From NCBI GenBank assembly GCA_038108555.1, contig JAYNIA010000001.1:139505-203504 (forward strand): DNA of 64,000 nt. The letters run 5' to 3'. Both the position numbers and the translations under genes were made by a program. The first letter of the stretch is position 1. Every line of letters starts with the position of its first letter. The DNA comes from Nitrospinota bacterium (lineage in GTDB: Bacteria; Nitrospinota; Nitrospinia; Nitrospinales; VA-1). The notes under the pieces are model-generated. The model was not told the origin of the DNA. It did no database searches and saw nothing but the letters and a program-made list of their open reading frames with translations. Shown one piece after another: positions 8,326-58,136 of the stretch.

Positions 8326-10158
8326 ATGAATGAAAGAACCCCATTAGACTTTAAAGATAATCCAGCCGACGCAAAACCACCAGAATCTGGCTGCCAGGAA
8401 GATAATCTGGCGACGGAGTCTTACCACCTGTTACTGGAAAAATTAAAGCCTATCAAGGAATTGATTCTTATTGCCCCGATGCAGGTTCCAAATTCTGTTT
8501 TCGACATTGAGGTGGCAAAGAGATCGGGGTATTTCAATTATCCTCCCGTGGGCCTTCTATATATTGCCTCTGCCGCGAAAAAAGTGGACCCCAGCATCAA
8601 AATTCAGCTGATAGACCTGAATTTGGAAATGCTTCAAAATGCAAACGGGGGAAATTTTTCATATGACTTTTGGAAATCGAGAATTTCAAAGGTTTTAAAA
8701 AATGCAGACTCCCCCTATGTCGGCATAACATGTATGTTTGATGTCAACAAGGAAACTTTTATCGACATATCCCAACATATTAAAAGCGAGTTCCCGGATA
8801 TTCCAGTTTTAGCTGGAGGAGTTCAAGCCACTTATGATTATGAAGAATTATTAGATAAACATGGCTTCGACCTTATTTTTAGAAAAGAAAGTGAAATTCA
8901 GTTTTCCAACTTCATTACCAACATAAACCAGAAAGACTTCTCTCATGAACCCAAGGGAGTGGCTTTTACCCATAAGCAAAAAATAATAACTTTAGGAGAA
9001 CCAGAACAGGACACCCCTGTAGAATTTGATATACGCGATTCCTATTCGCTGATACCTATAGAGGATTATTATAAAGTAGGAGGCTTGGCCGTTTTTTCCA
9101 GATATAACGGGATTAATAAACCTTTTGCAACGGTACTTAGCAATCGAGGATGCAGGGCCTATTGTACTTTTTGCACGGTACGCGATTTCAACGGCAAGGG
9201 CATACGTGCTCGAACAGTCGAAAGCGTTATCAACGAACTAAAATTCTTATGGGAAAAAGGAATTAGACAAATTGACTGGCTGGATGATGATTTTTTATGG
9301 GATAAGGAACGAACCCTTCATCTTTTAAAAAGAATGACAGAGGAAGTTCCCGGTATGGAATGGATCAGCAATAATGGACTTATTGCTGCAGCAATTAATG
9401 AGGAAATAATGGAATGGATGGTTCGTTCCGGACTTAAAGCGGTAAAAGTGGGTATCGAATCTGGAAATGACGCCATGCTTAAAAAAATTCTGAAACCCAC
9501 AAGTAAAAGAAAATTATTAATGTCTTCAGAGCTTTTTAAAAAATATCCCGAGGTTTTTTACAGCGGAAACTTTATTCTTGGTTTCCCCAACGAAACATTT
9601 CAGGAAATGATGGACTCTTATAATTTCGCACGCAAATTGGACTGGGACTGGGCCAGCTTTTATATTTGCCAACCCCTGGTTGGTACTGCCATGTATTCCA
9701 TCTTCAAAGATCTTGGCGAGGAAAGTGATAGCAATAAAGCTCTAAACCCAGGCCGATTAGCCCAACGCGGAGAAATGGGAGTAAAGTTCAATGGTGATTC
9801 GGACCCCATATTACGTGGAAGAGATATTTTTGACCTCCCTCCCGATATCGTCCCCTCTCGAGACCAATTAAACGAAATTTGGTTTACTTTCAATTTTTTA
9901 GCTAATTTTCTCAATAACCGTAATTGTCGTTCAGGCGGAAATATAGAAAAACTTATCAGATGGTATGAATCCATTTTCGCCGGCTACCCACATGACGCCT
10001 CTATGGCAGCGGCCCTGGCTCATGGATACCGTTTGAGCAATCAGGTTAAAACCGCACAATCCTATCAAAAAACTTTTGAAACCATCTTGGAAAAATCCAA
10101 TTATTGGCAATCACGAGTGAAGCAATTTCCAGAACTTCTGGAAATGGCCGGTCTCTAA
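8326..10158 (+). CDS. B12-binding-domain radical SAM enzyme
   Basis: PPVGLLYIA and GGVQAT N-terminal domain; RGCRAYCTFC; GIESG; FILGFPNET. Confidence 0.9.
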   Translation: MNERTPLDFKDNPADAKPPESGCQEDNLATESYHLLLEKLKPIKELILIAPMQVPNSVFDIEVAKRSGYFNYPPVGLLYIASAAKKVDPSIKIQLIDLNLEMLQNANGGNFSYDFWKSRISKVLKNADSPYVGITCMFDVNKETFIDISQHIKSEFPDIPVLAGGVQATYDYEELLDKHGFDLIFRKESEIQFSNFITNINQKDFSHEPKGVAFTHKQKIITLGEPEQDTPVEFDIRDSYSLIPIEDYYKVGGLAVFSRYNGINKPFATVLSNRGCRAYCTFCTVRDFNGKGIRARTVESVINELKFLWEKGIRQIDWLDDDFLWDKERTLHLLKRMTEEVPGMEWISNNGLIAAAINEEIMEWMVRSGLKAVKVGIESGNDAMLKKILKPTSKRKLLMSSELFKKYPEVFYSGNFILGFPNETFQEMMDSYNFARKLDWDWASFYICQPLVGTAMYSIFKDLGEESDSNKALNPGRLAQRGEMGVKFNGDSDPILRGRDIFDLPPDIVPSRDQLNEIWFTFNFLANFLNNRNCRSGGNIEKLIRWYESIFAGYPHDASMAAALAHGYRLSNQVKTAQSYQKTFETILEKSNYWQSRVKQFPELLEMAGL

Positions 10159-10186
10159 TTTATTTTTAATTTTGTCGGAGAAAGAA

Positions 10187-10861
10187 ATGGGCGAGCTATT
10201 TAATCTTACCAATGCAAATGTCAAACTCTATGATGGGCCTCCAAGAAATATGGACCCTACTTTTGGGTATGATTATTTTGATAACACTCGGGATACCGGA
10301 TATGGAGGATATTATTATGACGGCCGTTGGAAACCGGTTGCGAAAACCATCCTGGAAAAATATAATTTGAAATCCGGTGATCGAATTTTGGATTTGGGTT
10401 GTGGAAAAGGGTTCCTAATTGCCGACCTACTAGAAATTTGCCCGGGCATTGAGGCCAAGGGAATCGAAGTTTCTGAATACGCTATTGAAAACGCCCACCC
10501 TCCCGCAAAACCCCATATTACCCTTGGAAGTGTTGAGAAACTGTCTTACCCAGACAATTATTTTGATGCTGTAATGGGAATAAATGTATTTCATTTTCTG
10601 ACACCAGAAAAAACAAAAATAGCTTTTGAGGAAATGATCCGGGTTAATAAGGATCCCAAAAACCTTTTCGTTCACGTTGACGCTTTTACAGATGAGGTGG
10701 AACAAGAACGATTATTAGCATGGGCACCCATAATTAAAACTATTTATTCCTGTGACGACTGGTTCAAATTATTTAAAGAAGTAGGATACGAAGGGGACTA
10801 TTTCTGGACATTTGTTCGACCCGAAACACCTGAAAAATTTTATGGGGAAGTTAAAAACTAA
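10187..10861 (+). CDS. Class I SAM-dependent methyltransferase
   Basis: ILDLGCGKG; GYGGYYYDGRW N-terminus. ATG 10187 has GGAG upstream (track start is TTG 10172). Confidence 0.88.
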   Translation: MGELFNLTNANVKLYDGPPRNMDPTFGYDYFDNTRDTGYGGYYYDGRWKPVAKTILEKYNLKSGDRILDLGCGKGFLIADLLEICPGIEAKGIEVSEYAIENAHPPAKPHITLGSVEKLSYPDNYFDAVMGINVFHFLTPEKTKIAFEEMIRVNKDPKNLFVHVDAFTDEVEQERLLAWAPIIKTIYSCDDWFKLFKEVGYEGDYFWTFVRPETPEKFYGEVKN

Positions 10862-10902
10862 TCCTGAAAAATTTTATGAAAAATTAAGGCCCATCAAATT
10901 TC

Positions 10903-11310
10903 ATGCATGAGGTTGCTAAAGCTATTTTGCTGGAAAGAGGAAGGTTAGTTTTGCAATTACGAGACAACAAACCCTCGATCGAAACCCCAGGTGTATGGTC
11001 CTTATTTGGTGGAATAATTGAAAAGAATGAAGACCCCAAAGAGGCCATGATTCGAGAAATAGAAGAAGAGTTGTGTATCAAAGTAAAAGATATTAGTTTT
11101 TTGTGGGATTTAACCTTTTACCGGGAAGATGGAGAAAAGATTCTTCATAAGATCTATGAGGCAGATATCACATCCCTTTGGGGAAAACACAGTCTAATGG
11201 AAGGTCAGGCTGTTGGTTCGTTCAGTTTTGACCAGTTAAAATTATTGCGCGTTCCCCCTTTTATTCAACAAGTGGTGGCTCGGTATCAACGAGAAAAAAT
11301 TGCAGAGTGA
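10903..11310 (+). CDS. NUDIX hydrolase
   Basis: Nudix box GIIEKNEDPKEAMIREIEEEL. Confidence 0.9.
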   Translation: MHEVAKAILLERGRLVLQLRDNKPSIETPGVWSLFGGIIEKNEDPKEAMIREIEEELCIKVKDISFLWDLTFYREDGEKILHKIYEADITSLWGKHSLMEGQAVGSFSFDQLKLLRVPPFIQQVVARYQREKIAE

Positions 11311-11319
11311 GAGGTTTTT

Positions 11320-12363
11320 ATGAAAGCTGCTGTCTTATATGAAACCGGAAAACCTATAGTTGTCGAGGACGGAATAGAGATTCCTCCATTGCAAACGGGA
11401 CAGGTTCTTGTGAAGGTGGCATACAGCGGTATCTGCCGCAGCCAATTGATGGAAGTCAAAGGGAAACGGGGAAAAGATGCTTACCTACCTCATCTTCTCG
11501 GCCACGAAGCCTCGGGATGGGTAGTGGAAACAGGGACAGATGTTAAAAAAGTAATTCCGGGAGATAAAGTTGTTTTGACCTGGATAAAAGGTGACGGGGC
11601 TGATTGCCAAGGTGCAAAATACAAAATAGGAAGCACGACTCTAAACTCAGGTGGAGTGACAACATTTAGCAATTATACAGTGGTATCTGAAAACCGGTGC
11701 GTTATCCTTGCAGAAGGAATTCCCATGGAACTTGCAGCACTTTTAGGCTGTGCGATACCTACCGGAGCAGGGATCGTATTCAACACCCTGCGCCCCAAGA
11801 AAGATGCATCGATTGCTATATTTGGAGCAGGTGGGATTGGCTTAAGTGCTATATTGGGAGCAAAAATACACGATTGCTCCCGAATCATTGCGGTTGATAT
11901 AGAAGATAAAAAACTGGCATTAGCAAAAGAATTTGGCGCCACAGACGTAATTAATTGCAAAACTGAAGATGCCGTGAAAAAGATACATCAGATAACAAAT
12001 GGAAAAGGCACAGATTTTTCTATTGAAGCCGCCGGAAAATCAAAAGTGATCGAATCTGCTTTTCAGTCTGTAAAATTCAACGGCGGTAAATGCGTAATTG
12101 CGGGTCACCCGGATTCCCAAGAGCGGATTCAACTTGATCCCTTTGATTTAATTCGAGGTAGAAAAATCGAGGGATCCTGGGGAGGAGAAAGCAAACCGGA
12201 CAAAGATATTCCCCAATATGTAAATTATTACAAAGAAGGAAAACTCCCATTAGAAAGTATGATTTCAAAAATTTATCCTCTTGAAGAAATTAACCAAGCC
12301 ATGGCGGAGCTGGAAAAAGGAAGCGCCCACAGAATTCTTATCCGCATGGATCATCCGAAATAA
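11320..12363 (+). CDS. Zn-dependent medium-chain dehydrogenase/reductase
   Basis: GICRS, GHE, LGCAIPTG, GAGGIG; the four-Cys structural-Zn loop is absent. Confidence 0.9.
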   Translation: MKAAVLYETGKPIVVEDGIEIPPLQTGQVLVKVAYSGICRSQLMEVKGKRGKDAYLPHLLGHEASGWVVETGTDVKKVIPGDKVVLTWIKGDGADCQGAKYKIGSTTLNSGGVTTFSNYTVVSENRCVILAEGIPMELAALLGCAIPTGAGIVFNTLRPKKDASIAIFGAGGIGLSAILGAKIHDCSRIIAVDIEDKKLALAKEFGATDVINCKTEDAVKKIHQITNGKGTDFSIEAAGKSKVIESAFQSVKFNGGKCVIAGHPDSQERIQLDPFDLIRGRKIEGSWGGESKPDKDIPQYVNYYKEGKLPLESMISKIYPLEEINQAMAELEKGSAHRILIRMDHPK

Positions 12364-12401
12364 AAGTGAAATATTTTTCACCAATCAGTAAAGGATAGAT
12401 T

Positions 12402-14186
12402 TTGAATTTTTCCACACTTTCCTGTCTATTAGTATTAGCGCATGGCAAACTCCGCACCCTTTCACTATTGTATGCCCTGGTTATTGGAAGCGCATTTATG
12501 GAATCAATCGGAATTGCTTCGTTTTACCCTCTGGTTGATATGTTTCAAGATCCTCATCAATTGGAGTTTTACCGAAGCAAAGCAGCAGATTGGTTTCCCG
12601 CAATCAAATCCATGGACCGGGAACAGTTTTTATCATTTACCCTTATAGCAGTAGCGGCGCTGTTCATTTTTAAAAACCTGTTTCTTGTTCTTGCAGGCTA
12701 TGGAAATATTAAAGTAGTGACCGACCTTTATTGTTCCTGGATGAACAAAATTTTCAAAATTTACCTGGACAAACCCTATACCTTTTTCCTGGAAAATAAA
12801 GCCGGAGATTTAGCTCAGCGAAAAATCATGCAAACGCAAAAAGCCGCAGCGGCTTTAAGGGTTTTTGTCATGATTCTAGGAGGTGTAACTACTATTCTGG
12901 CGGTATTCTCCATTTTATGTTTTACAAGCCCTAAAATGACTTTAGCGATTATCTCCCTAATGGTTCCTGTTTACTTTATTACAATGAAAGTCTCAGGGGG
13001 AAGGGTTTACAAATCGGGTGGTAGAAATGTTGAACTTGAGAAACAGGGATTCGGTCTTACGACGGAAGTCCTCTCCGGAATTAAACAGGTAAAAGTTTTC
13101 TGCGCGGAAGACCACTTTCAAACAAAAGCTAAAATTATATGGAAAGAACATGCACATAATTTTATTCACAATCAATTTTTAAGTTCTTTACCAAGACCCA
13201 TTCTTGAAACCTTAGTGGTTTTGTGTGGGGTGGGGGCATTGTTTTTATTTATGCAAACCACCGGTCGACAACAGGAGGCGTTTCCAACATTGGCTGTTTT
13301 TGCGGTCGGAATTTATAGAATCCTTCCTTTAGCTGCAGCAACAAGCGCCCAGGTAATGTCCCTGGGATCGTTTCTGCCTTCCGTTGAAACAGTGGCTACC
13401 TTGCTAAACCACGAACCAGACAAAAAACAAGGGTCACCAGCACCTCTAATGACTCACCAAATAGAATTTCAAAATGTTTCTTTTTCTTTTAAAGACAGAG
13501 AGACCGTGTTGGATGATCTTTCCTTAAAATTTGAGAACAATAAATTTTATGGAATCGTAGGGGTATCTGGAAGTGGCAAATCAACCATCGTGGACTTGGT
13601 TGCCGGTTTTTTTAAACCTCAAAAGGGTCGGGTCCTTATAGACAACGAAGACCTGGACAACTTCGATAACAGCTCATGGTTAAGCCAGCTGGGAATTATC
13701 AGTCAGGAAGCTTTCATTTTTAGCGGAAGCATTGAAGATAATATTTGCTTTGGAGTTGATGCAGAGAAAAGAGACCCGGAATTAATGAAAGAAGCAGCAA
13801 GAGTTGCCTACGCCAATGAATTTATTGAACAATTACCTGAAGGATATCAAACCCTGGTGGGGGAAAGGGGTGTAAAACTGTCTGGCGGACAAAGACAACG
13901 ATTAGCAATTGCCAGGGCAATTTATCTGGATCCCCCCATACTCATATTTGATGAAGCTACCAGCTCACTGGATGCAAATTCTGAAAGAAAAGTTCAGGAA
14001 GCCATTGAAGCCTTACATGGCAAAAGAACGGTTCTTGTTGTAGCCCATAGGCTGGTCACCGTGGCAAGCGCAGATCATATCTATGTCATAGAAAATGGAA
14101 GTCTGGCAGAAGAAGGGACTCACGAGGAATTAAAAGAGGGTAGCGGACTATACAGCCGTCTATGCGCGAAACAAAGTCTTGGTTAA
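12402..14186 (+). CDS. ABC exporter, fused permease + ATPase (PglK/MsbA-like, candidate lipid-linked glycan flippase)
   Basis: Multiple TM helices; GVSGSGKST, LSGGQRQR, ILIFDEATSSLD, VAHRL. Confidence 0.88.
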   Translation: MNFSTLSCLLVLAHGKLRTLSLLYALVIGSAFMESIGIASFYPLVDMFQDPHQLEFYRSKAADWFPAIKSMDREQFLSFTLIAVAALFIFKNLFLVLAGYGNIKVVTDLYCSWMNKIFKIYLDKPYTFFLENKAGDLAQRKIMQTQKAAAALRVFVMILGGVTTILAVFSILCFTSPKMTLAIISLMVPVYFITMKVSGGRVYKSGGRNVELEKQGFGLTTEVLSGIKQVKVFCAEDHFQTKAKIIWKEHAHNFIHNQFLSSLPRPILETLVVLCGVGALFLFMQTTGRQQEAFPTLAVFAVGIYRILPLAAATSAQVMSLGSFLPSVETVATLLNHEPDKKQGSPAPLMTHQIEFQNVSFSFKDRETVLDDLSLKFENNKFYGIVGVSGSGKSTIVDLVAGFFKPQKGRVLIDNEDLDNFDNSSWLSQLGIISQEAFIFSGSIEDNICFGVDAEKRDPELMKEAARVAYANEFIEQLPEGYQTLVGERGVKLSGGQRQRLAIARAIYLDPPILIFDEATSSLDANSERKVQEAIEALHGKRTVLVVAHRLVTVASADHIYVIENGSLAEEGTHEELKEGSGLYSRLCAKQSLG

Positions 14187-14232: not shown

Positions 14233-14856
14233 CTAATTGGACAGACGTCCATGAAATACTCCTACCTTGGCCAGGAAATCCGTCACAATCTCTATAGATT
14301 CTTCCAGGGTTTGACTGCCGGTATTAATCAAAATTTCCGGATTCTCAGGTTCCTCGTAAGGAGCACTGATCCCGGTAAAATTTAAAATCTCCCCGGCACG
14401 AGCCCGCTTATACATCCCTTTTACATCTCTGGATTCACAAATCTCCAAAGGACAATTACAATAAATTTCAAAAAAATCTTCAGGAGCAAACATCTCCCTT
14501 AATTTTTTCCTCGCGTCTTTAAAAGGAGAGATATAAGCCGCAAGAGTAATAATCCCTGTTTCAATAAACAATTTAGACACTTCACCAATTCGCCTCAAAT
14601 TTTCGTTTCGATCTTCATCTGAAAATCCAAGATCCTTGCAAAGCCCGTGTCTGACATTATCCCCATCAAGAACCAGGGTTTTGTAACCCAACTGGTGAAG
14701 CCTTTCTTCTACCGCATGAGCCAGGGTGGATTTTCCCGATCCCGACAATCCTGTAAACCAAAGTAAAGCAGATCTATGCTTTCCTTGCTGCTCGCGACGT
14801 TCTCGAGTAACCGTTGCTCGGTGGCGAACAATTTTATCTGATGTATGTTTTTCCAA
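14233..14856 (-). CDS. cysC: Adenylyl-sulfate (APS) kinase
   Basis: WFTGLSGSGKST, LDGDNVRHGL, FTGISAPYEEP. Confidence 0.95.
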   Translation of the reverse strand: MEKHTSDKIVRHRATVTRERREQQGKHRSALLWFTGLSGSGKSTLAHAVEERLHQLGYKTLVLDGDNVRHGLCKDLGFSDEDRNENLRRIGEVSKLFIETGIITLAAYISPFKDARKKLREMFAPEDFFEIYCNCPLEICESRDVKGMYKRARAGEILNFTGISAPYEEPENPEILINTGSQTLEESIEIVTDFLAKVGVFHGRLSN

Positions 14857-15369: not shown

Positions 15370-16035
15370 ATGGTGCAATTGCCAGATTTTTCCAAGGCTA
15401 TGGAATATGAAAACCATTTTTATATGTCCTGCGACTCCACACGATTATCAAAAGTGATCGCTCAATACGAGTTGTATAAAATGACTATGGATATTCCCGG
15501 AGTAATTATGGAATGCGGGATTTTTAAAGGTACTTCTCTTTCCCGATTTGCCATGTTTCGCCAACTCTTCGGGAACACTTCTGCAAAAAAGATAATTGGT
15601 TTCGATGTATTTGGAAAATTTCCAGAAACCAACTATGAGGAAGATAAAAAAGTTTTAGGCAGTTTGTTTACCGGAGCTGCGGGCGATACAGGAGTCTCCA
15701 AAGAGCAAATGCTGGAAATTTTAAAGAATAAAAACTGTGACGATAATCTGGAATTAGTCGAAGGGGATATTTGTGAAACCTTGCCCAAATATCTTCAGGA
15801 GAACCCACAACTCAAGATTTCTCTCTTGAATCTGGATACAGATATCTATGAACCCGCTGTAACCATCCTGGAATGTTGTTGGGATAGAATTGAATCGGGA
15901 GGAATATTAATCGTAGATGACTACGGCGTATTTCCAGGAGAAACCAAAGCGGTTACCGAATTTCTAAAATCACAACAAGAGACCGTTAAAAAGTTTTACT
16001 TCGCCAAATCCCCTTGCTATATTATTAAAAAATAA
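15370..16035 (+). CDS. TylF/MycF-family O-methyltransferase
   Basis: ECGIFKG, GFDVFG, LNLDTDIYEP, DDYGVFPGE. Confidence 0.85.
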   Translation: MVQLPDFSKAMEYENHFYMSCDSTRLSKVIAQYELYKMTMDIPGVIMECGIFKGTSLSRFAMFRQLFGNTSAKKIIGFDVFGKFPETNYEEDKKVLGSLFTGAAGDTGVSKEQMLEILKNKNCDDNLELVEGDICETLPKYLQENPQLKISLLNLDTDIYEPAVTILECCWDRIESGGILIVDDYGVFPGETKAVTEFLKSQQETVKKFYFAKSPCYIIKK

Positions 16036-16158
16036 GCTCTAACGGATTTTTCCAATCATCAAGGAGTGCCCTTCTTGAATCCTCCTGAGTAAAAATCTTA
16101 TGAGGATCAATTAGGTCATTCTCATTAAACTCATCAAAGATTCTAATTTATTTACACA

Positions 16159-20016: not shown

Positions 20017-20057
20017 ATTGAATACCCCCCGAACAAAGCCTCTTTCAAAGTTAAGAC

Positions 20058-46850: not shown

Positions 46851-46855
46851 TTAAA

Positions 46856-51103: not shown

Positions 51104-51132
51104 ATTTTTCCCTAGAATAAATCCAAGCTGTC

Positions 51133-51879
51133 ATGTTTGAAAGCATTAAAGACAAAAAGGTATTGATTACCGGGGGCAGCGGAGGAATTGGTTCCTGCAT
51201 GTCCCTTTTGTTTGCCGAACAGGGTGCCCATGTTGGAATCCATTATAATGTGGGAGAGAAAGAGTCTTCAGAATTGGTGGATAAAATAAAAAAAATGGGG
51301 GTCAACAGCGCCGCTTTTCAAGCAGATCTAACGAAAGAATCCTGCCAATCCATTATTCCGGAATTTATTGATCAATTTGGAGGACTGGATGTACTCATCA
51401 ATAACGCCGGTGCGGCGATAGGTACCAAAGACATTCTGGATCTTGACGAAGATTCCTGGGACAAAACCTTTTCCCTGAATGCAAGAGCTCCTTTTTTTCT
51501 TGCTCAACAAGCTTTTAAGCATATGAAAGATCATGGGGGTGGAAAAATAATTAACATCAGCTCCATTTCTGTCAAGTATGGCGGCTCTTCAAAAACTCTA
51601 CATTATGGTGCAGCAAAATCCGCTTTGGAAACGGTTACCCTTGGCCTGTCAAAAGCAGGCGCGGGACATAATATTTTAGTAAACACTGTTCGTGGGGGTT
51701 ACATAGATACCCCCATGCATCAAAAGATGGGAAGAAAAAATCCGGAAGAGCGCATTAAACTAATTCCTTTAAAAAGAGCGGGGAAACCCAAGGACATGGC
51801 AGGCATGGTTCTTTTCCTGGCTTCAGATTCCGGTAATTTTATTACAGGTGAAACTTTTACGGTTGCGGGCGGAGATTGA
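51133..51879 (+). CDS. Classical SDR oxidoreductase
   Basis: TGGSGGIG, NNAG, NISS, YGAAK. Confidence 0.92.
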   Translation: MFESIKDKKVLITGGSGGIGSCMSLLFAEQGAHVGIHYNVGEKESSELVDKIKKMGVNSAAFQADLTKESCQSIIPEFIDQFGGLDVLINNAGAAIGTKDILDLDEDSWDKTFSLNARAPFFLAQQAFKHMKDHGGGKIINISSISVKYGGSSKTLHYGAAKSALETVTLGLSKAGAGHNILVNTVRGGYIDTPMHQKMGRKNPEERIKLIPLKRAGKPKDMAGMVLFLASDSGNFITGETFTVAGGD

Positions 51880-51900
51880 ACTCGCTAGGAAAATGGTGCA

Positions 51901-52665
51901 ATGAATATTACAATCAACCGAGCTGTTTTTCTGGATTTCGATGGGGTTTTGTTTGATACCGTTCGCGAAGCATATGCTGTGTCTATGATGGCCCTTAACC
52001 CTTCAGAAAGAATTGAAGACATTGACTTCGAGTCAAAACATTTTAAAGATTTCAACCAACTTAGATACCTGGTGGGTCCTGCATGGAATTATTATTATGT
52101 AATGCAGACCATCAATAATGATTCCCTTCCCGAAAACGAACTGGATATAGAGTATAAAAAGTTAATTGGCCAACAAAAACAGGTAGAATATAACGCGTTT
52201 GAAAAAAATTTCTTCCACGCCCGGGAAATACTTAGGGAAAATGACCACGACCAATGGTTATCAATGACCTGTCCTTATAATATTGTGGAAAATTTAAGGA
52301 AAATAATTAATGAATATAGTGAACAATTTTTTCTTGTGACCACCCGGGACAGGGAATCGGTAAAAGATCTTTTAACTTTGCATAATCTGGATATTCCGGA
52401 AAGCAACCTCTTTGCAAAAACCGATTATGAATCCCATAAATCCAAAAGAAAAATTATTCAAAACCTGATTGATAAATTTCAAATTGAAGAAGCTTTATTT
52501 ATTGATGACCTGGAAGAGCATCTCGTTTCTTGTAGCACCATTGACGGGTTATCCACTATCCAAGCTAAATGGGGATATGTTATCCCATCAAAAAAAGAAG
52601 ATAACAGCGCATCCCTATTACAAGAACTAGCAAGATTCATTCAGGGGGAAAATGTTCGGGCTTGA
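51901..52665 (+). CDS. HAD-superfamily hydrolase
   Basis: FLDFDGVLFD (motif I), VTTR, FIDD (motif IV). Confidence 0.8.
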   Translation: MNITINRAVFLDFDGVLFDTVREAYAVSMMALNPSERIEDIDFESKHFKDFNQLRYLVGPAWNYYYVMQTINNDSLPENELDIEYKKLIGQQKQVEYNAFEKNFFHAREILRENDHDQWLSMTCPYNIVENLRKIINEYSEQFFLVTTRDRESVKDLLTLHNLDIPESNLFAKTDYESHKSKRKIIQNLIDKFQIEEALFIDDLEEHLVSCSTIDGLSTIQAKWGYVIPSKKEDNSASLLQELARFIQGENVRA

Positions 52666-53422
52666 ACAAAAACTTTTCGACCAACTGGTCCGGTTGAAGG
52701 AAAAATTTGATCTGCAGGGAATTAAGGCAGAATTTGAAGCAGAAGGTTCTTCATTCAGGGATTTGGTAAGACTCCGGAGAATCACCGACAAGTTGGATAT
52801 CCCCCTACATTTAAAAATTGGTGGTGTTGAAGCCCTCCGCGATATTAAAGACTCTTTGGAAATCGGGGTCGATGGTCTCATTGCCCCAATGGTAGAAAGT
52901 TGCTTTGGCCTGAAAAAATTTATTGATGGAGTTGATTCCATATACCAGGGCACCGATGTTCATTTATCCATAAATATTGAAACACAACAGGCTGTTAGCA
53001 ACCTGAAAGAAATACTAAAATTGGGAAAAGGGAAAATTGACAATATTACAGTTGGTAGAACCGACCTCAGCGCTTCCTATTTTGACCCAAAAATAATTCC
53101 AGACAGTGATTTTATTTTTGGTCTACTGGAAGAAATTGGAAACGACGTTTCAAGCTCTGAAATGAAAATGACGGTGGGGGGAAGTGTAAGCAAAAAAAGC
53201 ATAGAGCGGTTTGGGCGCGATACCGAAAAATGGCCCCGGCTCATTCACAGGCTTGAAACCCGAAAGGTGATTTTACCCACAAAAGTCATGCTGGAAGACA
53301 AAAACAGTATTGCCGAAGCCCTCAGGTTCGAAGAGCTTTACATTTTATCAAAGAAAGAAATCAGCGATTTGTTTATGAAATCAGAAACTGCGCGGCTCAC
53401 GCGGTTAAAAATGAGGTCCTGA
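52652..53422 (+). CDS. HpcH/HpaI aldolase / citrate-lyase-like TIM barrel
   Basis: KIGGVEA, DGLIAPMVES, INIET, VGRTDLS. Confidence 0.75.
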   Translation: MFGLEQKLFDQLVRLKEKFDLQGIKAEFEAEGSSFRDLVRLRRITDKLDIPLHLKIGGVEALRDIKDSLEIGVDGLIAPMVESCFGLKKFIDGVDSIYQGTDVHLSINIETQQAVSNLKEILKLGKGKIDNITVGRTDLSASYFDPKIIPDSDFIFGLLEEIGNDVSSSEMKMTVGGSVSKKSIERFGRDTEKWPRLIHRLETRKVILPTKVMLEDKNSIAEALRFEELYILSKKEISDLFMKSETARLTRLKMRS

Positions 53423-53424
53423 TT

Positions 53425-54084
53425 ATGTCTGATAATTTTGCCGTGGTGATTCCTGCCTTGGACAGCAACCAATACTATGCCGAAGGTGACTTGGTACAGT
53501 TCGGGGATACAACCCTGCTGGAATGGAAAATAGCGCAAATACTGGGCATAACCAGTAAAGAAAAAATATTTATATCCACACCCTCGGAAAAAATAATCGA
53601 TCTCGCAAAAAGTTATGGGGTGAATTTCGTAAAAAGGGGCATGGGGTCGGATCCTTCGCAGTGGATAAAAGAAAGCGTTGACCCCATTGAAAGCGATTAC
53701 GTCCTATGGACTCATGCAACTTCGCCCTTCATCTCAGCCGGTGACTACCGCAAAATGCTCGATACATTCTTCGACCTTCCCAACGACCACGACAGTTTGA
53801 TTACGGTTTTCAAGGAGCAGGAATATATAATTTTCCAAAATAAACCTTTAAATTTTGATGTGGGGAAATTTAAAGGCCGAAAAGAGATTGAGCCGGTTTA
53901 TAGAAATACAAATGGATGTTATATAACTCCGCGCGAAAATTATCGTCAAAATAGAATCTATTTTGGGGAGAAACCTTTTTATTACGAAGTTGACAAATTG
54001 ACCTCTTTGGAAATCAAAGATATTGACCATTACGAAATGGCCTTAAATCTTCTTTCTCTGTATTTCAAAACCAAGGAAATTTGA
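53425..54084 (+). CDS. Divergent acylneuraminate cytidylyltransferase-like protein
   Basis: VIPA, FIST, HATSPF, EIKD; lacks the RxGSKxxxxKN loop. Confidence 0.7.
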   Translation: MSDNFAVVIPALDSNQYYAEGDLVQFGDTTLLEWKIAQILGITSKEKIFISTPSEKIIDLAKSYGVNFVKRGMGSDPSQWIKESVDPIESDYVLWTHATSPFISAGDYRKMLDTFFDLPNDHDSLITVFKEQEYIIFQNKPLNFDVGKFKGRKEIEPVYRNTNGCYITPRENYRQNRIYFGEKPFYYEVDKLTSLEIKDIDHYEMALNLLSLYFKTKEI

Positions 54085-54803
54085 TGGAGAGTTCCCTTCT
54101 TACGGTTGCTTTAATTACAGGGAGAGGCAACAATACGCTTAAGGACAAAAATATTCGCGAAGTTTGCGGAAAACCCCTTCTAACCTACCCTGCCCAGGCG
54201 GCTCGAAAATGTGATTTTATTAATCAATTTTTCGTTAGTAGCGATGATGAAAAAATCCTTTCTATCGGGCAGGATTGTGGTTATAAAAAAATCAAACGCC
54301 CTGAAGAGCTGGGCCAACCTGACGCGAAACATGTCGATGTCATCATTCATTCCCTAGAAGAAATGAAAAAGGAGAATATCGAACCTGACATCCTGATTGT
54401 TTTGCTGGCCAATACCGTTTGCGTAAAACAGGAATGGATCGAAGAATGCACCCGGGAAATTTTTGCGGATCCTACACTCTCAGCAGTGGTGCCTGTGATA
54501 TCAGATTTAGACCACCACCCTTTTAGGGCAAAAAAGAGAGATGAAAATGGCCTTCTCGAATCTTTTTTTGATTTCGGGGATCGTGAAATTTCTTCAAATC
54601 GACAGGAGATCGGGGATTGTTTTTTCCTTTGCCATAATTTCTGGGTATTAAATGTTAAAGAGTCAATACAAAAAAATGATGGCCAACCTCCCTGGAAATT
54701 TATGGGAAATAAGGTCAAACCTTACGAAATAGATTGGTCCATTGATGTTCACACCGAAGAAGATCTGGTTAAAAGCGAGAAATGGGTATTGGAAAATCTA
54801 TAG
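54084..54803 (+). CDS. Acylneuraminate cytidylyltransferase-like protein
   Basis: TGRGNNTLKDKN, VSSDD, RPEEL, HHPFRAK, IDVHTEED. Confidence 0.82.
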   Translation: MESSLLTVALITGRGNNTLKDKNIREVCGKPLLTYPAQAARKCDFINQFFVSSDDEKILSIGQDCGYKKIKRPEELGQPDAKHVDVIIHSLEEMKKENIEPDILIVLLANTVCVKQEWIEECTREIFADPTLSAVVPVISDLDHHPFRAKKRDENGLLESFFDFGDREISSNRQEIGDCFFLCHNFWVLNVKESIQKNDGQPPWKFMGNKVKPYEIDWSIDVHTEEDLVKSEKWVLENL

Positions 54804-54857
54804 ATATCTAATTTAATCCTAACACTTGTTTGCCTTCCGAACTTAATAATCCTGATA

Positions 54858-56429
54858 ATGTCCAACGACCCATTAGAACAAGAAAGTCCTGTCCCGCCCG
54901 ATTTTTCCCTGGCCGACAAAGAAAGGTTAAAAATTGAAAACCCACGATTAAAGAAACTTTACGACTATTTATCAGAAGTCGCAAAGAATTCCTACAGCGA
55001 TCCACATTTGTTATCCAATGCCGTATTTTCCAAATGTGACTTACCCCTTCCCGCCCTCAACAAATACCTGGCAGAACAGGAATGTGAAAAATTTTCATTC
55101 TCATCTTCTTTTAAAAAGTTGGTTATGTATTTCTCCAAAAGCATTGCCTGGTATTTTATTTTTCTTGCACAAAAAGTGGCCCACAAAGTATCCCGACAAA
55201 AGTTTTCCCTCATACCTGACAAGTCACTAACACTGATTGATATTTTTCTCGTTCCCGAACAAATTGTCCGTAACGCAGAATTAACAGACAGGTTTTTTCC
55301 AGGACTTGAAAAGGAGCTGATAGCTAAAGGGCGGAGTTATGCTTACGCTCCTAAATTTTCAGGAGAAGACAATCCTTTAACCTATTACAAAATGTTTTGT
55401 CTGTTAAAAAATAAAAAGCGGCCAGTTCTCACCAGTTTCCAGCTTTTGGAAGCGTCGGACTATTTAAAAATGCTTGGATTTATTTTGATATATCCCATGA
55501 AAGTTCTTCGAAAAATAAATAAACTGAAAAATTCCACTGAAGAAAACCTTCTTCGATTATTTCTTTGGAGCACTTTAGACCACACCACAGTTAAAAGTTA
55601 TATGAGACAGCTTTTTGGTAAACGTATTTCCGATATGAATAATCCTTCAGTGAAATGCATCAGCTGGTACGAAAACCAACCCCAGGACAAAAATTTTTAC
55701 AAGGGGTTAAGATCTAAACATTCAGATATGCAGATTTTTGGCGCGCAACTTTATCTTTGGCCCGCCACCCTCTTAAATTTGCATGCAGATGGGAATGAAA
55801 GCAGTTTTGGTCTTATCCCCAACCGTATTCTGGTGAATGGAACCTACTATCTCAATAAAGACAGTTCTCTTGAGTTTGAGGTGGGACCCTCCATGAGGTA
55901 TTCACGATTATTCCAAATCAAAGTGGACCCAAAGAATAAAACGAGCCTTTTGGTACTCATGCCATTTTTTGAACATGAAATTGATAAAATACTCGAAATG
56001 ATTGAAGATGCAAATTTCTCTGTTGAAATATTTGTAAAATTCCATCCTGCCACTGACAAAAATAAATATGCCCATAGAATGAAAAATAAAATGGAAATTA
56101 TAGAAGATGATATCTATTCCCTGTTTGAACGTGTAGGTTGCGTCATCGGGAAGTCCACGGGAGCACTGGTAGAAGCAACCAGTATGGGAATTCCAGTTAT
56201 AGACATCGACACCGGATCCGGGGTGAGCCACAATTATCTACCCGAGTTTGGCAAAGGTATCATTTGGGAAAAGGCTTCCACGGGCGTAGAAATTGCAAAA
56301 TGGACTCAAATCTTTAGCTCCCTCATAATAACCCATCCAGAATTAATTCATTCCATCGCCGAAAAACATAAGGAAATGTTTTTTTGTGAGCCCACGGATG
56401 AAATAATTGAAAAATCATTTAAATTGTAA
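54858..56429 (+). CDS. Hypothetical protein, probable GT-B-like transferase
   Basis: WYENQ, GAQ, GPSMRY, VKFHP (HP motif), STGALVEA..GIPV. Confidence 0.55.
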   Translation: MSNDPLEQESPVPPDFSLADKERLKIENPRLKKLYDYLSEVAKNSYSDPHLLSNAVFSKCDLPLPALNKYLAEQECEKFSFSSSFKKLVMYFSKSIAWYFIFLAQKVAHKVSRQKFSLIPDKSLTLIDIFLVPEQIVRNAELTDRFFPGLEKELIAKGRSYAYAPKFSGEDNPLTYYKMFCLLKNKKRPVLTSFQLLEASDYLKMLGFILIYPMKVLRKINKLKNSTEENLLRLFLWSTLDHTTVKSYMRQLFGKRISDMNNPSVKCISWYENQPQDKNFYKGLRSKHSDMQIFGAQLYLWPATLLNLHADGNESSFGLIPNRILVNGTYYLNKDSSLEFEVGPSMRYSRLFQIKVDPKNKTSLLVLMPFFEHEIDKILEMIEDANFSVEIFVKFHPATDKNKYAHRMKNKMEIIEDDIYSLFERVGCVIGKSTGALVEATSMGIPVIDIDTGSGVSHNYLPEFGKGIIWEKASTGVEIAKWTQIFSSLIITHPELIHSIAEKHKEMFFCEPTDEIIEKSFKL

Positions 56430-56436
56430 ATTTTCT

Positions 56437-56446
56437 CCCCCCCCCC
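56437..56446. repeat. C10 homopolymer in intergenic DNA
   Basis: Ten consecutive C in AT-rich DNA, about 110 bp upstream of the rSAM gene at 56556. Confidence 0.85.
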
Positions 56447-56555
56447 TTCCCATTTGTCAATCTACCCCGGCGGCCTTTTAGTCCTTTAATCATTGATATC
56501 CCTAGCGTTGAAAAAATTTTTGTTGCATAATATGACTTAATTTTTATGTAGAGGA

Positions 56556-58136
56556 ATGATGGGCATTAAAGTACTTTTTATTTATCCCAACACGTACGGC
56601 ATGAATATGCTGCCCCCGGCGATAGCTTTATTTTCAGCCTTGTTGAAAGATCGCGGGCATTCTGTGGATCTTTTTGATGCCACCTATTACCAGACGGATC
56701 ATGGTATTGACTCAGATGGAACCAAAGCCGAGCGCCTCAATGTGGTTCCCTTTAGCCCGAGCGAAAAGGGCATCAAAATGCGTGAGACGAATTGGGCTGA
56801 TGATATTGCGGACAAGGTAGAATCTTTTCAACCCGACTTAATAGCACTTTCAACTACCGAAGATATGTGGTTGCTGGGCGTTAGAATGCTCGACGAGATT
56901 AGAGAACACATCACCCGTCACAAAATACCTGTCATTGTTGGTGGAGTTTTTCCCACATTTGCGCCTGAAATCGTTATCAAACACGACCTCGTCGATATGG
57001 TTTGTGTGGGCGAAGGGGAAAATACCATGATTGACTTATGCGACCGAATTGAAAAAGGGAATCCCTGGGATGATGTCACCAACATATGGGTCAAGAAGAA
57101 AGATGGTTCAATTACCAAAAACCCCATCTCAAATTCCTTCGATATCAACGATACTCCTATTATAGACATCGACCTTTTCGAAGAGCAGCGTTTATATCGT
57201 CCTATGGCCGGCAAGTGGTACAAAATGATGCCTGTTGAAACCATTAGAGGATGCCCGTATAAATGCACCTTCTGCAATTCTCCTGACCAAACCACCCTGT
57301 ACAATGAAAAAACGGACTCCAGGTTTTTTCGAAAAAAAGACCTCAAGCTGGTCTACAAGGAACTAAAACATTTCAAAGAAAACTATGGAGTGGAATACAA
57401 TTATTTCTGGGCAGACACCTTTCTCTCCTGGAACGACAGGGAGTTCGATGAGTTTTGTGAAATGTATGCCGATATCGGGCTTCCCTTTTGGATGCAAACG
57501 CGCCCGGAAACCATCACCGAATATAAAATAAAACAGCTGGTCAAGGTCGGGTTACATCGCATCTCATTTGGATTGGAACATGGTAATACCGAGTTTCGCA
57601 GGAAACTCCTCAAACGCGAATGGAAAAACCAAGCCATCATTGAAGCGTTAAGAATACCCGCACGTCACGGGGTCCCCTTCAGTGTAAATAACATTACCGG
57701 CTTCCCAACTGAAACCCGCGAACTTGCAATGGATACGATTGAGCTGAACCGGCACATTGAATCACACAATCAAAACCTATACTCCTTTGTTCCTTTCCAT
57801 GGAACACCGCTTCGCAAATTATGTGAAGATTTGGGACTGGTAACTCCGGATACGATTACGAAGGCACTTACCGACAAACCGATGCTGGATCAAAAAGATT
57901 ACACTCCGGCAGAAATTGAAGGCCTGCAGAAATGTTTTGTCTATTATGTGAAGTTGCCAAAAAGCAGGTGGAAGGATATAGAAAGAGCGGAGAAAAACAC
58001 TCCCGAAGGTGAAAAGATTTTTGCGGAACTAAAACAGGAATACACAGAAAGATACTTAACTCCGACCCAGCCCACCTCAAATAAAGAGTCTCATAATTCT
58101 GCCGATCTGGAATATGGCATGGAGTATACGAGTTAG
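56556..58136 (+). CDS. B12-binding-domain radical SAM enzyme
   Basis: PPAIALF, GGVFPT, VGEGE, RGCPYKCTFC, ADTF, GLEHG, ITGFPTET. Confidence 0.92.
   Translation: MMGIKVLFIYPNTYGMNMLPPAIALFSALLKDRGHSVDLFDATYYQTDHGIDSDGTKAERLNVVPFSPSEKGIKMRETNWADDIADKVESFQPDLIALSTTEDMWLLGVRMLDEIREHITRHKIPVIVGGVFPTFAPEIVIKHDLVDMVCVGEGENTMIDLCDRIEKGNPWDDVTNIWVKKKDGSITKNPISNSFDINDTPIIDIDLFEEQRLYRPMAGKWYKMMPVETIRGCPYKCTFCNSPDQTTLYNEKTDSRFFRKKDLKLVYKELKHFKENYGVEYNYFWADTFLSWNDREFDEFCEMYADIGLPFWMQTRPETITEYKIKQLVKVGLHRISFGLEHGNTEFRRKLLKREWKNQAIIEALRIPARHGVPFSVNNITGFPTETRELAMDTIELNRHIESHNQNLYSFVPFHGTPLRKLCEDLGLVTPDTITKALTDKPMLDQKDYTPAEIEGLQKCFVYYVKLPKSRWKDIERAEKNTPEGEKIFAELKQEYTERYLTPTQPTSNKESHNSADLEYGMEYTS

Follow-up and report, generated by a model that had tools for sequence, protein, structure and literature searches.

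The DNA analyzed here is a 64,000-nucleotide stretch from a Nitrospinota bacterium (order Nitrospinales, VA-1; assembly GCA_038108555.1, contig JAYNIA010000001.1, positions 139,505 to 203,504 of the forward strand), hereafter the window. It encodes seven radical S-adenosylmethionine (rSAM) proteins, numbered rSAM1 to rSAM7 from left to right, among genes for the synthesis of activated sugars. We consider it probable (roughly 0.7) that the window and the ∼13 kb upstream of it form a surface-glycan island in which several activated-sugar pathways run in parallel and the rSAM proteins serve as tailoring enzymes. The original prediction, made from this DNA alone, had described a glycan locus; a narrower description, that of a nonulosonic-acid/heptose island, fits it better. 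The gene content, the protein motifs and the gene neighbourhoods conserved across phyla are reported below, and from them we infer candidate substrates, reaction types and acceptors.

Radical SAM proteins of the island

Open reading frames (ORFs) of the window were listed and their products scanned with Pfam and NCBIfam, using the curated cut-offs of the latter. The original prediction had named five B12-binding-type and two SPASM/Twitch-type rSAM proteins, each with an intact CxxxCxxC motif. All seven ORFs were recovered at the predicted starts, Pfam confirmed their domains, and exactly one CxxxCxxC motif is present in each protein (Table 1). The B12-binding domain (PF02310, cut-off 32.1 bits) scored 40.6 bits in rSAM1, 63.4 in rSAM2, 59.7 in rSAM4, 35.9 in rSAM5 and 49.3 in rSAM7, and Radical_SAM exceeded the Pfam gathering cut-off in all five. 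By domains and motif, these five proteins fit class B (cobalamin-dependent) rSAM enzymes; they would bind cobalamin and may transfer methyl groups. In 14 sequences of the rSAM5 family the CxxxCxxC motif is invariant.

The other two proteins can be assigned to the SPASM/Twitch enzymes only; weak matches to BlsE, PqqE, anSME and BtrN say no more. rSAM3 carries C316-x2-C319-x5-C325-x3-C329, which corresponds to the SPASM motif CX2CX5CX3C; these cysteines, together with C246, C262 and C281, are invariant in 14 homologues. The rSAM3 profile aligns across the SPASM region of PqqE, anSME and SuiB-type chains, and Pfam SPASM did not match rSAM3 at 1e-5. rSAM6 matches Pfam SPASM with 52.7 bits and ends three residues past C381, so that its SPASM motif is partial (Twitch-like).

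The source is a 2.9-Mb metagenome-assembled genome (MAG) with a completeness of 92%. Its RecA shares 96% identity with a protein named from a Nitrospinales MAG, and going by the labels of such relatives the host is probably a marine Nitrospinota bacterium. The window comprises the final 64 kb of a 203.5-kb contig (C1), and its right edge is the contig end. An eighth B12-type rSAM gene (516 aa) is located upstream at C1:126630-128180 and is followed, up to position 139504, by genes for a MaoC-SDR (short-chain dehydrogenase/reductase) fusion, an FkbH-like protein, a GNAT acetyltransferase, a polysaccharide deacetylase, a GT2 glycosyltransferase, an RmlC-like protein, a dehydratase, a nucleotidyltransferase and an epimerase. 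This places the left end of the island ∼13 kb ahead of the window instead of at window position 8326, and gives a total of eight rSAM genes in ∼71 kb. With 48 Radical_SAM matches in the whole genome, 0.82 would be expected per 49.8 kb, where seven are found, and 1.17 per 71 kb, where eight are found (Poisson P ∼2.5e-5 and ∼3e-5, respectively, under a model that ignores operon structure). The clustering of rSAM genes in the island exceeds chance. At least 23 of the 48 matches are B12-domain-type paralogues: 18 rSAM1/2/4/7-like ORFs, rSAM5 and its two further relatives, and two on contig C32.

As a control, 40 rSAM genes outside the island were scored in the same way, and sugar-pathway neighbours were seen for only about three: C12:19925 (WbuX, HisH, WbuZ and LegC-like genes), C7:63249 (which adjoins the third of the three true NeuB genes of the genome, the other two being in the window) and a pair at C1:38-40 kb (RmlB-like gene nearby). 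The scoring method therefore does not call every rSAM gene glycan-linked.

The rSAM5 family and legionaminic-acid genes

The window encodes a complete-looking legionaminic-acid pathway, as judged by sequence, in which LegC, the 2-epimerase, NeuB and the N-acetyltransferase score above curated cut-offs (Table 1); the SDR dehydratase/epimerase reached 64 bits with the LegB model (cut-off 475). At E≤1e-10, a search with rSAM5 returned 2572 relatives, of which over 100 measure ∼710 aa and share 54-60% identity. For a neighbourhood scan, one genome per species was taken and the best 80 of 591 were selected; ORFs of the 78 loci returned were scored against the window proteins. NeuB was present in 29 of the 78. 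Among loci of at least 12 kb, NeuB accompanied the rSAM5 relative in 11 of 14 when the latter scored at least 750 bits, in 10 of 13 at 440-750 bits and in 5 of 36 below 440 bits; many distant relatives are instead located beside a nucleotidyltransferase and an RmlB-like dehydratase gene. The NeuB-positive loci bear the labels Magnetovibrio, Pelagibacteraceae, Baikal MAG, Sulfuritalea, Deltaproteobacteria, SAR324, Planctomycetia, Omnitrophota, Gemmatimonadetes, Elusimicrobia, Terriglobales/Acidobacteriota, Hydrogenedentes and Gammaproteobacteria. A common order in Terriglobales is NeuD-NeuB-rSAM5-NeuC-PtmE-CMP-synthetase-PtmA-PtmA, and in four other loci WbuX, HisH and WbuZ adjoin the rSAM5 relative (L029, L033, L037 and L058). 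A chance estimate was made for 43 genomes picked for long loci, with short loci and several near-duplicate Terriglobales dropped: a random 22-kb segment holds NeuB in ∼1.5% of cases, and 21 NeuB-positive loci were observed where 0.64 would be expected.

Among solved proteins, rSAM5 is most closely related to TokK (E 3e-40, residues 65-499) and CysS (E 1e-39). Its best NCBIfam match is the KedN5 family NF033712, which it matches with 216.3 bits at a cut-off of 700; rSAM5 is a relative and not a member of that family. Given the relation to TokK and CysS, the leading guess for rSAM5 is cobalamin-dependent methylation of an unactivated carbon, and we put at about even odds that it methylates an unactivated sp3 carbon, possibly in repeated rounds.

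Close relatives of rSAM5 (52-61% identity) were also seen in single-cell genomes labelled Pelagibacteraceae (L022-L030, L058) and Prochlorococcus (L027). One Pelagibacteraceae record (L022) has three B12-domain rSAM genes side by side; these lineages are oxic and streamlined. A plasmid search with rSAM5 yielded distant matches only (at most 31% identity), among them genes of a thienamycin producer and genes annotated as KedN5. One 31%-identical relative is among four genes annotated 'radical SAM protein' on an Azospirillum oryzae plasmid (NZ_CP054615.1, 218991-244964), in a cluster that also includes two carbamoyltransferases, a GNAT protein, methyltransferases and an epimerase; the host is cultured.

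The rSAM3 family and a second NeuB module

The CMP-sugar-acid synthetase gene that follows rSAM3 is kept adjacent to rSAM3 relatives in six other loci. Of 471 rSAM3 relatives at E≤1e-20, the closest named one (85% identity) is from a Nitrospina sp. MAG; another, 56% identical, is named from Azospirillum tabaci. In the phylum, rSAM3 was found in three of 120 genomes, this one included, and in none of 16 genomes of the same genus. The neighbours are the same in all three genome loci examined, namely a fused-type NeuB, a TylF-like methyltransferase and a CMP-synthetase. Metagenomes provided 80 rSAM3 loci, 49 of which measure at least 6 kb; among these 49, a NeuB-like gene occurs in 39, a CMP-synthetase-like gene in 33 and one or the other in 46. 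The TylF-like methyltransferase is present in 28 of the 80 and, like homologues of the NeuB fusion, recurs beside rSAM3 relatives. Full-length relatives of the fusion (816-1048 bits) adjoin rSAM3 homologues in three metagenome loci, and short NeuB_APendo-like ORFs near rSAM3 relatives match the NeuB part of the fusion and not the TIM barrel. Other long NeuB fusions are present in other genomes.

Further rSAM genes accompany rSAM3 in the 80 loci: rSAM2-like, rSAM4-like and rSAM6-like genes in ten each, rSAM7-like in seven and rSAM5-like in four. Multi-rSAM nonulosonate islands are thus not unique to this genome. rSAM3 is present in only one of the 43 rSAM5-bearing genomes, and the two are therefore not an obligate pair. 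Considering the scarcity of rSAM3 in the phylum and an identity of 36% for the best in-phylum relative of rSAM5, both were probably acquired from outside; this copy of rSAM5 probably came together with the legionaminic-acid genes. The plasmid search gave no match for rSAM3.

A role of the SPASM enzymes in the maturation of ribosomally synthesized and post-translationally modified peptides (RiPPs) was considered and rejected, the neighbourhoods being those of NeuB and CMP-synthetase genes. The gaps of ∼280 bp 5' of rSAM3 and rSAM6 contain no ORF of at least 100 aa, the size range to which the search was confined.

rSAM2 is a paralogue of rSAM7 (258 bits). In metagenomes, an 833-bit relative of rSAM2 adjoins relatives of rSAM3 and of the neighbouring 680-aa protein unk680, and relatives of 200-330 bits are located near rSAM3 homologues in four further loci. 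Together with its in-phylum context (see below), this makes for a weak association of rSAM2 with glycan genes. Relatives of unk680 adjoin rSAM3 or rSAM4 relatives; neighbour clusters in the ESM Atlas carry PFTS_polysacc, LIC12162, Glyphos_transf or Capsule_synth, a lead to a possible capsule-type or GT-B-like transferase.

rSAM1 in a conserved heptose operon

The genes from the first epimerase to the one preceding rSAM1 (999-8310) are repeated in the same order in three other genomes of the phylum, and those from the methyltransferase to the ABC exporter (10172-14186) are kept 3' of rSAM1 orthologues. An rSAM1-like match at E≤1e-60 was obtained in nine of 120 genomes of the phylum. All three orthologues (67-75% identity) are embedded in the same heptose operon of 10-12 genes, which extends from the first epimerase through the zinc-dependent alcohol dehydrogenase (Zn-ADH) or the ABC exporter. 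Three of five more distant relatives lie beside GmhA, HldE-like, methyltransferase or Nudix genes, one is accompanied by other NDP-sugar genes, and for the last the contig is too short to judge. The best NCBIfam match of rSAM1 is the Sden_1168 P-methyltransferase family (139 bits, cut-off 575), and PhpK scored 97.5 bits (cut-off 600).

Inside this operon, and kept with it in three genomes, is a pair of genes for thiamine-diphosphate (ThDP)-dependent E1 alpha and beta subunits (3754-5799), which score as pyruvate-dehydrogenase E1 (306 and 317 bits). Their position suggests that a keto-sugar is branched or lengthened by two carbons in a ThDP-dependent step. The HldE-like enzyme has its nucleotidyltransferase domain first and its PfkB kinase domain second, the reverse of Escherichia coli HldE, and its start as called overlaps the end of E1 beta by 64 bases.

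rSAM6 and rSAM7 in an aldolase/cytidylyltransferase module

Within the phylum, rSAM6 orthologues adjoin CTP_transf_3-like and SDR genes. When the 120 genomes of the phylum were searched with rSAM2, 35 gave matches, comprising a single rSAM2 orthologue and many rSAM7-like proteins. Of 20 loci retrieved, 11 contain an rSAM7 orthologue scoring 790 bits or more, and in ten of these 11 it is accompanied by rSAM6, SDR, HpcH-like, cytidylyltransferase or GT-B (unk523) relatives. The association extends beyond the phylum: one 8-kb contig of an Omnitrophota MAG carries rSAM6, CTP_transf_3-like, SDR, rSAM7 and CMP-synthetase-like genes, and in a Nitrosomonadaceae MAG a cytidylyltransferase-like gene adjoins rSAM6. 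The right edge of the island is syntenic in a genome of the same genus (G094, locus L146) and in locus L166; in the former the order is pilM, a 128-aa ORF, unk262, rSAM7 and the GT-B gene. An rSAM7-like gene of another genome (G157:C89:4438-5733, 48% identity) contains one in-frame TGA; candidate explanations are gene decay, a sequencing error and recoding.

The AlphaFold2 (AF2) model of the HpcH-like protein (pLDDT 90.5) matched class II pyruvate aldolases best among PDB folds (TM ∼0.6, E 6e-9); a sequence-only search of the PDB returned nothing significant (best E 0.16). A pyruvate-aldolase fold, a HAD phosphatase and cytidylyltransferases of the KdsB/NeuA type together suggest the formation of a 3-deoxy-2-ulosonic acid by pyruvate aldol addition, followed by CMP activation. 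For unk523, which has 1016 representative relatives, the AF2 model (pLDDT 94.4) matched the GT-B-fold enzymes MurG, GtfD, WecB and TagF; its ESM Atlas neighbours LIC12162, Capsule_synth and Glyphos_transf are leads only.

rSAM4 and sulfation genes

rSAM4 is flanked on both sides by sulfotransferase genes, and rSAM5 is located between a sulfotransferase gene and WbuX. The best NCBIfam match of rSAM4 is BchE (156 bits, cut-off 481). Orthologues (53-58% identity) were found in 11 other genomes, all of one family. Two adjoin NeuB, two are near CMP-synthetase and NeuB, and one is found with Wzy_C, an ABC exporter, WbuX/HisH/WbuZ and adenylylsulfate (APS) kinase; three others occur with ATP sulfurylase, sulfotransferase, APS kinase, a Wzx-like protein and NeuB. 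The glycan association of rSAM4, considered with the two loci described below, is mixed.

Organization of the island and its flanks

The coordinates of the features are given in Table 1. By content they fall into a heptose module (999-14186), a second NeuB module (15370-27545), the legionaminic-acid module (27775-36077), a sulfation module around rSAM4 (36275-42331, with the APS kinase at 14233-14856), an acetamidino/acyl module that includes rSAM5 (42382-49670) and the aldolase/cytidylyltransferase module (49949-59784). Between the NeuB fusion and the first FkbM-family gene, an RNase T/DEDD-type exonuclease (18552-19136) and a 250-aa protein with no family match (19264-20016) lie among the sugar genes. 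The window is free of tRNA genes and of Rfam families at gathering score, those of cobalamin and SAM riboswitches included.

Table 1. Features of the window, in window coordinates. Scores are bits, with curated cut-offs in brackets.
Feature	Position	Strand	Domains or evidence
SDR epimerase	999-1940	+	Pfam/NCBIfam
RmlB-like 4,6-dehydratase	1969-2955	+	Pfam/NCBIfam
GmhA-like isomerase	3164-3745	+	Pfam/NCBIfam
ThDP E1 alpha	3754-4731	+	Pfam/NCBIfam
ThDP E1 beta	4738-5799	+	Pfam/NCBIfam
HldE-like nucleotidyltransferase+kinase, domain order swapped	5736-7343	+	Pfam/NCBIfam
SDR epimerase, followed by rSAM1	7408-8310	+	Pfam/NCBIfam
rSAM1	8326-10158	+	B12-binding + Radical_SAM, 610 aa, CxxxCxxC at residue 276
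Class I SAM methyltransferase	10172-10861	+	Pfam/NCBIfam
Nudix	10903-11310	+	Pfam/NCBIfam
Zn-ADH	11320-12363	+	Pfam/NCBIfam
MsbA/PglK-like ABC exporter	12402-14186	+	Pfam/NCBIfam
APS kinase (supply of 3'-phospho-APS, PAPS)	14233-14856	-	NF003013, 295 (163)
TylF-like O-methyltransferase	15370-16035	+	Pfam/NCBIfam
NeuB-SAF-xylose-isomerase-like TIM-barrel (AP_endonuc_2) fusion, 748 aa	16159-18405	+	Pfam/NCBIfam
FkbM-family methyltransferase	20180-21067	+	Pfam/NCBIfam
rSAM2	21096-22976	-	B12-binding + Radical_SAM, 626 aa, CxxxCxxC at residue 234
rSAM3	23255-24694	+	Radical_SAM + Fer4_12 + SPASM-type auxiliary-cluster domain, 479 aa
CMP-sugar-acid synthetase 1 (CTP_transf_3)	24696-25412	+	starts 2 bp past rSAM3 stop codon
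unk680, 680 aa	25503-27545	+	no Pfam or NCBIfam match
SDR dehydratase/epimerase	27775-28791	+	Pfam
LegC aminotransferase	28822-29988	+	NCBIfam, 518.9 (420)
NeuC/LegG hydrolysing 2-epimerase	29981-31153	+	NCBIfam, 461.6 (235.9)
NeuB/LegI synthase	31232-32314	+	NCBIfam, 486.4 (399.65)
CBS+nucleotidyltransferase, PtmE-like	32518-33606	+	Pfam
PtmA-like SDR	33607-34371	+	Pfam
GFO/PtmF-like oxidoreductase	34418-35386	+	Pfam
CMP-synthetase 2	35373-36077	+	above Pfam CTP_transf_3 cut-off; PseF, 174 (205.7)
Arylsulfotransferase-like	36275-37603	+	Pfam
Protein of 121 aa, no assigned function	37808-38173	+	scan
Sulfotransfer_3 protein	38170-39189	+	Pfam
rSAM4	39430-41397	+	B12-binding + Radical_SAM, 655 aa, CxxxCxxC at residue 232
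Sulfotransferase (Sulfotransfer_3 / Sulfotransfer_1)	41420-42331	+	Pfam
rSAM5	42382-44517	-	B12-binding + Radical_SAM + conserved C-terminal region of ~300 aa, 711 aa, CxxxCxxC at residue 215
WbuX amidotransferase	45109-46224	+	361.5 (203.2)
HisH-like	46221-46850	+	scans
WbuZ/HisF-like	46775-47662	+	scans
Protein of 413 aa, no assigned function	47659-48900	+	scans
NeuD/PglD-type N-acetyltransferase	49008-49670	+	208.1 (160.8)
rSAM6	49949-51103	+	Radical_SAM + SPASM/Twitch-type C-terminal domain, 384 aa, CxxxCxxC at residue 122
FabG-like SDR	51133-51879	+	Pfam
HAD hydrolase	51901-52665	+	Pfam
HpcH/HpaI-like TIM barrel	52652-53422	+	Pfam + AF2 model
CTP_transf_3-like cytidylyltransferase	53425-54084	+	Pfam
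CTP_transf_3-like cytidylyltransferase	54081-54803	+	Pfam
unk523, GT-B-fold putative transferase	54858-56429	+	AF2 model
rSAM7	56556-58136	+	B12-binding + Radical_SAM, 526 aa, CxxxCxxC at residue 233
Conserved protein, no assigned function	58160-58948	+	scans + synteny
Conserved protein, no assigned function	58834-59784	+	scans + synteny
Second FkbM methyltransferase	59887-60732	-	right edge of island, before pilM-type genes

Type IV pilus genes are located on both flanks of the island. Upstream, a PilB/MshE-like ATPase is split over two ORFs (L014:231-2371); at the right edge, a PilM-type gene (61889-63685, 598 aa) is accompanied by small downstream ORFs within 60856-61871. The 128-aa ORF at 60856-61242 was examined as a pilin and rejected, since it lacks a pilin-type N-terminus and looks like part of the pilM operon. 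Elsewhere, the genome has eight flagellin-domain matches, six of them in tandem (contigs C28, C9 and C3), two full-length Maf-type glycosyltransferases and a short MptE-like gene beside flgE/flgD/fliK (contigs C9, C39 and C3), and Wzy_C-type genes on contigs C7 and C12. Maf-dependent glycosylation of flagellin by this genome is possible, and pilin could be an acceptor; we infer that the remaining candidates are flagellin via Maf, a Wzy_C-linked route and type IV pili. On contig C32 (L015:5942-13651), a sialidase-like BNR_2 gene is grouped with an MptE-like fragment of 200 aa and two more large rSAM genes, one with a B12 domain; this may be a second nonulosonate-related site.

Proposed scheme

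The locus would be a variable surface-glycan island of a flagellated marine bacterium of the Nitrospinales type. One pathway would lead to CMP-legionaminic acid by the GDP-GlcNAc (ptm/leg) route, supplemented by the acetamidino-forming WbuX/HisH/WbuZ; another to a second NeuB-based nonulosonate with its own CMP-synthetase and TylF-type O-methyltransferase; a third to an NDP-heptose acted on by the 4,6-dehydratase, the ThDP E1 pair, the methyltransferase and the dehydrogenase. The HpcH-like enzyme, the HAD phosphatase, the SDR and the two cytidylyltransferases would constitute a fourth, probably producing a further CMP-activated 3-deoxy-2-ulosonic acid. The rSAM enzymes would act on sugar or nucleotide-sugar intermediates, or on N-acyl or O-alkyl substituents of these. 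rSAM1 may be assigned to the heptose operon, rSAM3 and probably rSAM2 to the second NeuB module and rSAM5 to the legionaminic-acid pathway; rSAM4 is located among the PAPS and sulfotransferase genes. rSAM6 and rSAM7 would tailor the product of the aldolase/cytidylyltransferase module, with the GT-B protein as the putative transferase. GT-B-like transferases of the island, and Maf proteins encoded elsewhere, could then deliver the products to lipopolysaccharide (LPS) or capsule, and to flagellin.

A bolder reading, to which we give slightly less than an even chance, is that a hidden rSAM branch exists in the biosynthesis of nonulosonic acids and higher sugars, made up of at least three widespread families (the rSAM5 type, the rSAM3 type and the rSAM6/7 pair) and yielding C-alkylated, oxidized or rearranged sugar acids of nine or more carbons, and that this Nitrospinales island stacks all three families in one place.

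Evidence for and against the assignment

The original prediction had placed each rSAM gene next to sugar-nucleotide, CMP-synthetase or sulfotransferase genes. This holds for most: rSAM1 abuts an SDR epimerase, rSAM3 a CMP-synthetase, and rSAM4 and rSAM5 a sulfotransferase gene. The immediate neighbours of the others are different, namely a methyltransferase and rSAM3 for rSAM2, an acetyltransferase and an SDR for rSAM6 and the GT-B-like protein for rSAM7. Homologues of rSAM1, 3, 5, 6 and 7 occur mainly within loci for nonulosonic-acid, heptose or CMP-sugar-acid pathways, so that for most of the enzymes the prediction withstood the test of whether close homologues lie mainly outside glycan loci; those of rSAM4 are mixed, and the in-phylum rSAM2 orthologue lies among housekeeping genes. 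Conserved neighbourhoods thus bear out the predicted link to glycan pathways; C-methylation, deoxygenation or rearrangement of the sugars would be candidate chemistry. That the reactions would be undescribed ones agrees with the family scores and with the literature (see below).

Several observations weigh against a tailoring role in one glycan island. The sole in-phylum orthologue of rSAM2 (57% identity, L136) is surrounded by genes for DNA polymerase III tau, cytochrome P460 and EF-P, and at two rSAM4 orthologue loci from one genus the housekeeping genes are joined by no more than those for an ABC exporter and a class V aminotransferase. None of the seven rSAM proteins of the window reaches a curated NCBIfam cut-off, and their matches to solved sugar-acting rSAM enzymes are weak and fall mostly on the common rSAM core. 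The window contains no classical GT1/GT2, Wzx or Wzy genes, and no Maf or flagellin genes are present in it or within 40 kb upstream. CobS was not found in the 92%-complete genome, in which CbiB is present; the genome is a MAG, and the window stops at a contig end. Sampling also counts here, as the rSAM5 loci are the best 80 of 591 with related genomes that are not independent, and the cross-phylum rSAM6/7 genomes form a biased sample because they were picked for holding rSAM5 relatives.

The rSAM enzymes of glycan pathways might build or remodel substituents, by extension of N-acetyl or O-methyl groups or through unusual acyl donors, and leave an ordinary legionaminic-acid or heptose core untouched. 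Alkylation by TokK and CysS, whose structures are the solved ones related to rSAM5, is directed at side chains or alkoxy groups and not at sugar rings; rSAM5 relatives often abut the N-acyl modifiers WbuX/HisH/WbuZ; FkbH-like, MaoC-SDR and GNAT genes adjoin the eighth rSAM gene; and an O-methyltransferase travels with rSAM3. Against this, the Terriglobales operons have rSAM5 between NeuB and NeuC and are devoid of WbuX, and the sequences do not separate ring from substituent targets; we regard the explanation as unlikely, yet one to be taken seriously. An action on the acceptor protein (flagellin, or the pilin of type IV pili) or on the completed glycoprotein, in place of soluble sugar precursors, would suit SPASM enzymes, which typically modify peptides or proteins (compare the PqqE, SkfB, anSME and SuiB-type matches), as well as the pilus genes on the island flanks and the many flagellins of the genome. 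It is very improbable, given that rSAM5 relatives occur in the legionaminic-acid clusters of Pelagibacteraceae and Prochlorococcus records, groups not known to carry flagella, that rSAM3 is translationally coupled to the CMP-synthetase, and that its relatives keep NeuB and CMP-synthetase and not flagellin or pilin neighbours.

In a genome with 48 rSAM genes, clustering might also reflect the dynamics of a variable island whose rSAM genes are passengers with unrelated jobs in cofactor, lipid, RiPP or tRNA metabolism. The contexts of the rSAM2 orthologue and of two rSAM4 orthologues point that way, as do best NCBIfam matches that include BchE, HpnJ, RiPP methylases and NirJ/AhbD. These matches are all far below the cut-offs, however, and the neighbourhoods of rSAM1, 3, 5, 6 and 7 are conserved across phyla, the NeuB count at rSAM5 loci greatly surpasses the chance estimate, few of the other rSAM genes in the genome have sugar neighbours, and the gaps 5' of rSAM3 and rSAM6 lack ORFs in the range searched, which lies above precursor-peptide size; we consider the passenger explanation improbable. 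Decoration of the glycan with phosphonate or phosphinate, by P- or C-methylation of the PhpK or Fom3 kind, is brought to mind by the P-methyltransferase families that head the list for rSAM1 and by the cytidylyltransferases near rSAM7, the substrate of Fom3 being CMP-activated. Yet the rSAM1 scores are far below the cut-offs, the E1 subunits score as pyruvate-dehydrogenase E1, the only PEP_mutase-family match of the genome is on contig C14, outside the island, and the HpcH-like model matched pyruvate aldolases first, with no PEP mutase among the matches listed (42 rows, to rank 49). The last two results led us to reject the phosphonate reading, whose chances we consider minimal. Taken together, the conserved neighbourhoods favour a surface-glycan island with rSAM tailoring enzymes.

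Comparison with known systems

Nonulosonic acids of the sialic-, legionaminic- and pseudaminic-acid type decorate flagella, LPS and capsules and shape recognition by phages and the immune system; the diversity known so far is the work of ordinary transferases and epimerases and of the acyl donors used. Tailoring by rSAM enzymes, if it takes place, would add a new layer of surface-sugar chemistry, with C-alkylation at unactivated carbons, radical oxidation and rearrangement as candidate reactions. The rSAM5 family has thousands of members, which are located in variable genome regions for surface glycans in marine and soil bacteria of high abundance, and a tailoring role would matter for the arms race between marine phages and their hosts; were the hidden branch real, unusual sugar acids would be present on some of the ocean's most abundant bacteria. 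The gene modules point to substrates (pathway intermediates, CMP-legionaminic acid derivatives and NDP-heptoses) for enzymes that have no assigned function. What the analysis chiefly offers is the recognition of the widespread rSAM5, rSAM3 and rSAM6/7 families, together with a definition of their partner genes; some relatives are found in the cultured genera Azospirillum, Roseomonas and Nisaea.

Legionaminic-acid pathways, flagellin glycosylation islands and rSAM tailoring of sugars in antibiotic pathways are already known. To our knowledge, no rSAM enzyme is part of a characterized legionaminic-acid or flagellin-glycosylation pathway. A full-text literature search, whose coverage excluded subscription journals, returned no paper that links rSAM enzymes to nonulosonic-acid biosynthesis, and rSAM families as conserved parts of nonulosonate/heptose surface-glycan operons were not found in print. 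The nearest likeness is by annotation alone: a survey of phase variation tabulates phase-variable rSAM genes of the 'MoaA/NifB/PqqE/SkfB family' in Campylobacter fetus together with methyltransferase, SDR and formyltransferase genes, in an annotation table whose accompanying passage gives neither a function nor a sugar link (PMC6321876).

Like the Campylobacter-type leg/ptm pathway, the window encodes LegC, NeuC/LegG, NeuB/LegI, NeuD/LegH, PtmE-like, PtmA-like, GFO, CMP-synthetase and WbuX-type proteins, and as in Maf-dependent flagellin glycosylation islands, Maf genes and several flagellins are present in the genome. The island departs from these systems in several ways: Maf and flagellin genes map to other contigs, the LegB model is unmatched, and heptose, second-NeuB, aldolase and sulfation modules are added to the leg/ptm genes. 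With the antibiotic-pathway enzymes GenK, Fom3, AprD4, BtrN, BlsE, OxsB and DesII, the rSAM proteins of the island would share radical chemistry on sugar or nucleotide-activated substrates. Sequence matches to them are weak (BlsE, 59 bits with rSAM3; BtrN, 42 with rSAM6; AprD4, 22-52 with rSAM1, 2, 4, 5 and 7; OxsB, 47 with rSAM7), and the AprD4-family diol-dehydratase model NF033070 (cut-off 500 bits) gave 50.8, 52.3 and 41.8 bits with rSAM1, rSAM2 and rSAM7, respectively. The setting also differs, being that of primary cell-surface glycan biosynthesis in uncultured marine bacteria.

The closest parallel to rSAM5 is provided by C-methyltransferases of the TokK/ThnK/CysS/KedN5 type, with which it shares an N-terminal B12-binding domain followed by the CxxxCxxC core and similarity over the full core. 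It differs from them in an identity of ∼29% or less (216 bits against a family cut-off of 700), in a family-specific conserved C-terminal region of ∼300 aa, and in its location in legionaminic-acid clusters of non-actinobacterial, mostly marine and soil bacteria rather than in antibiotic clusters.

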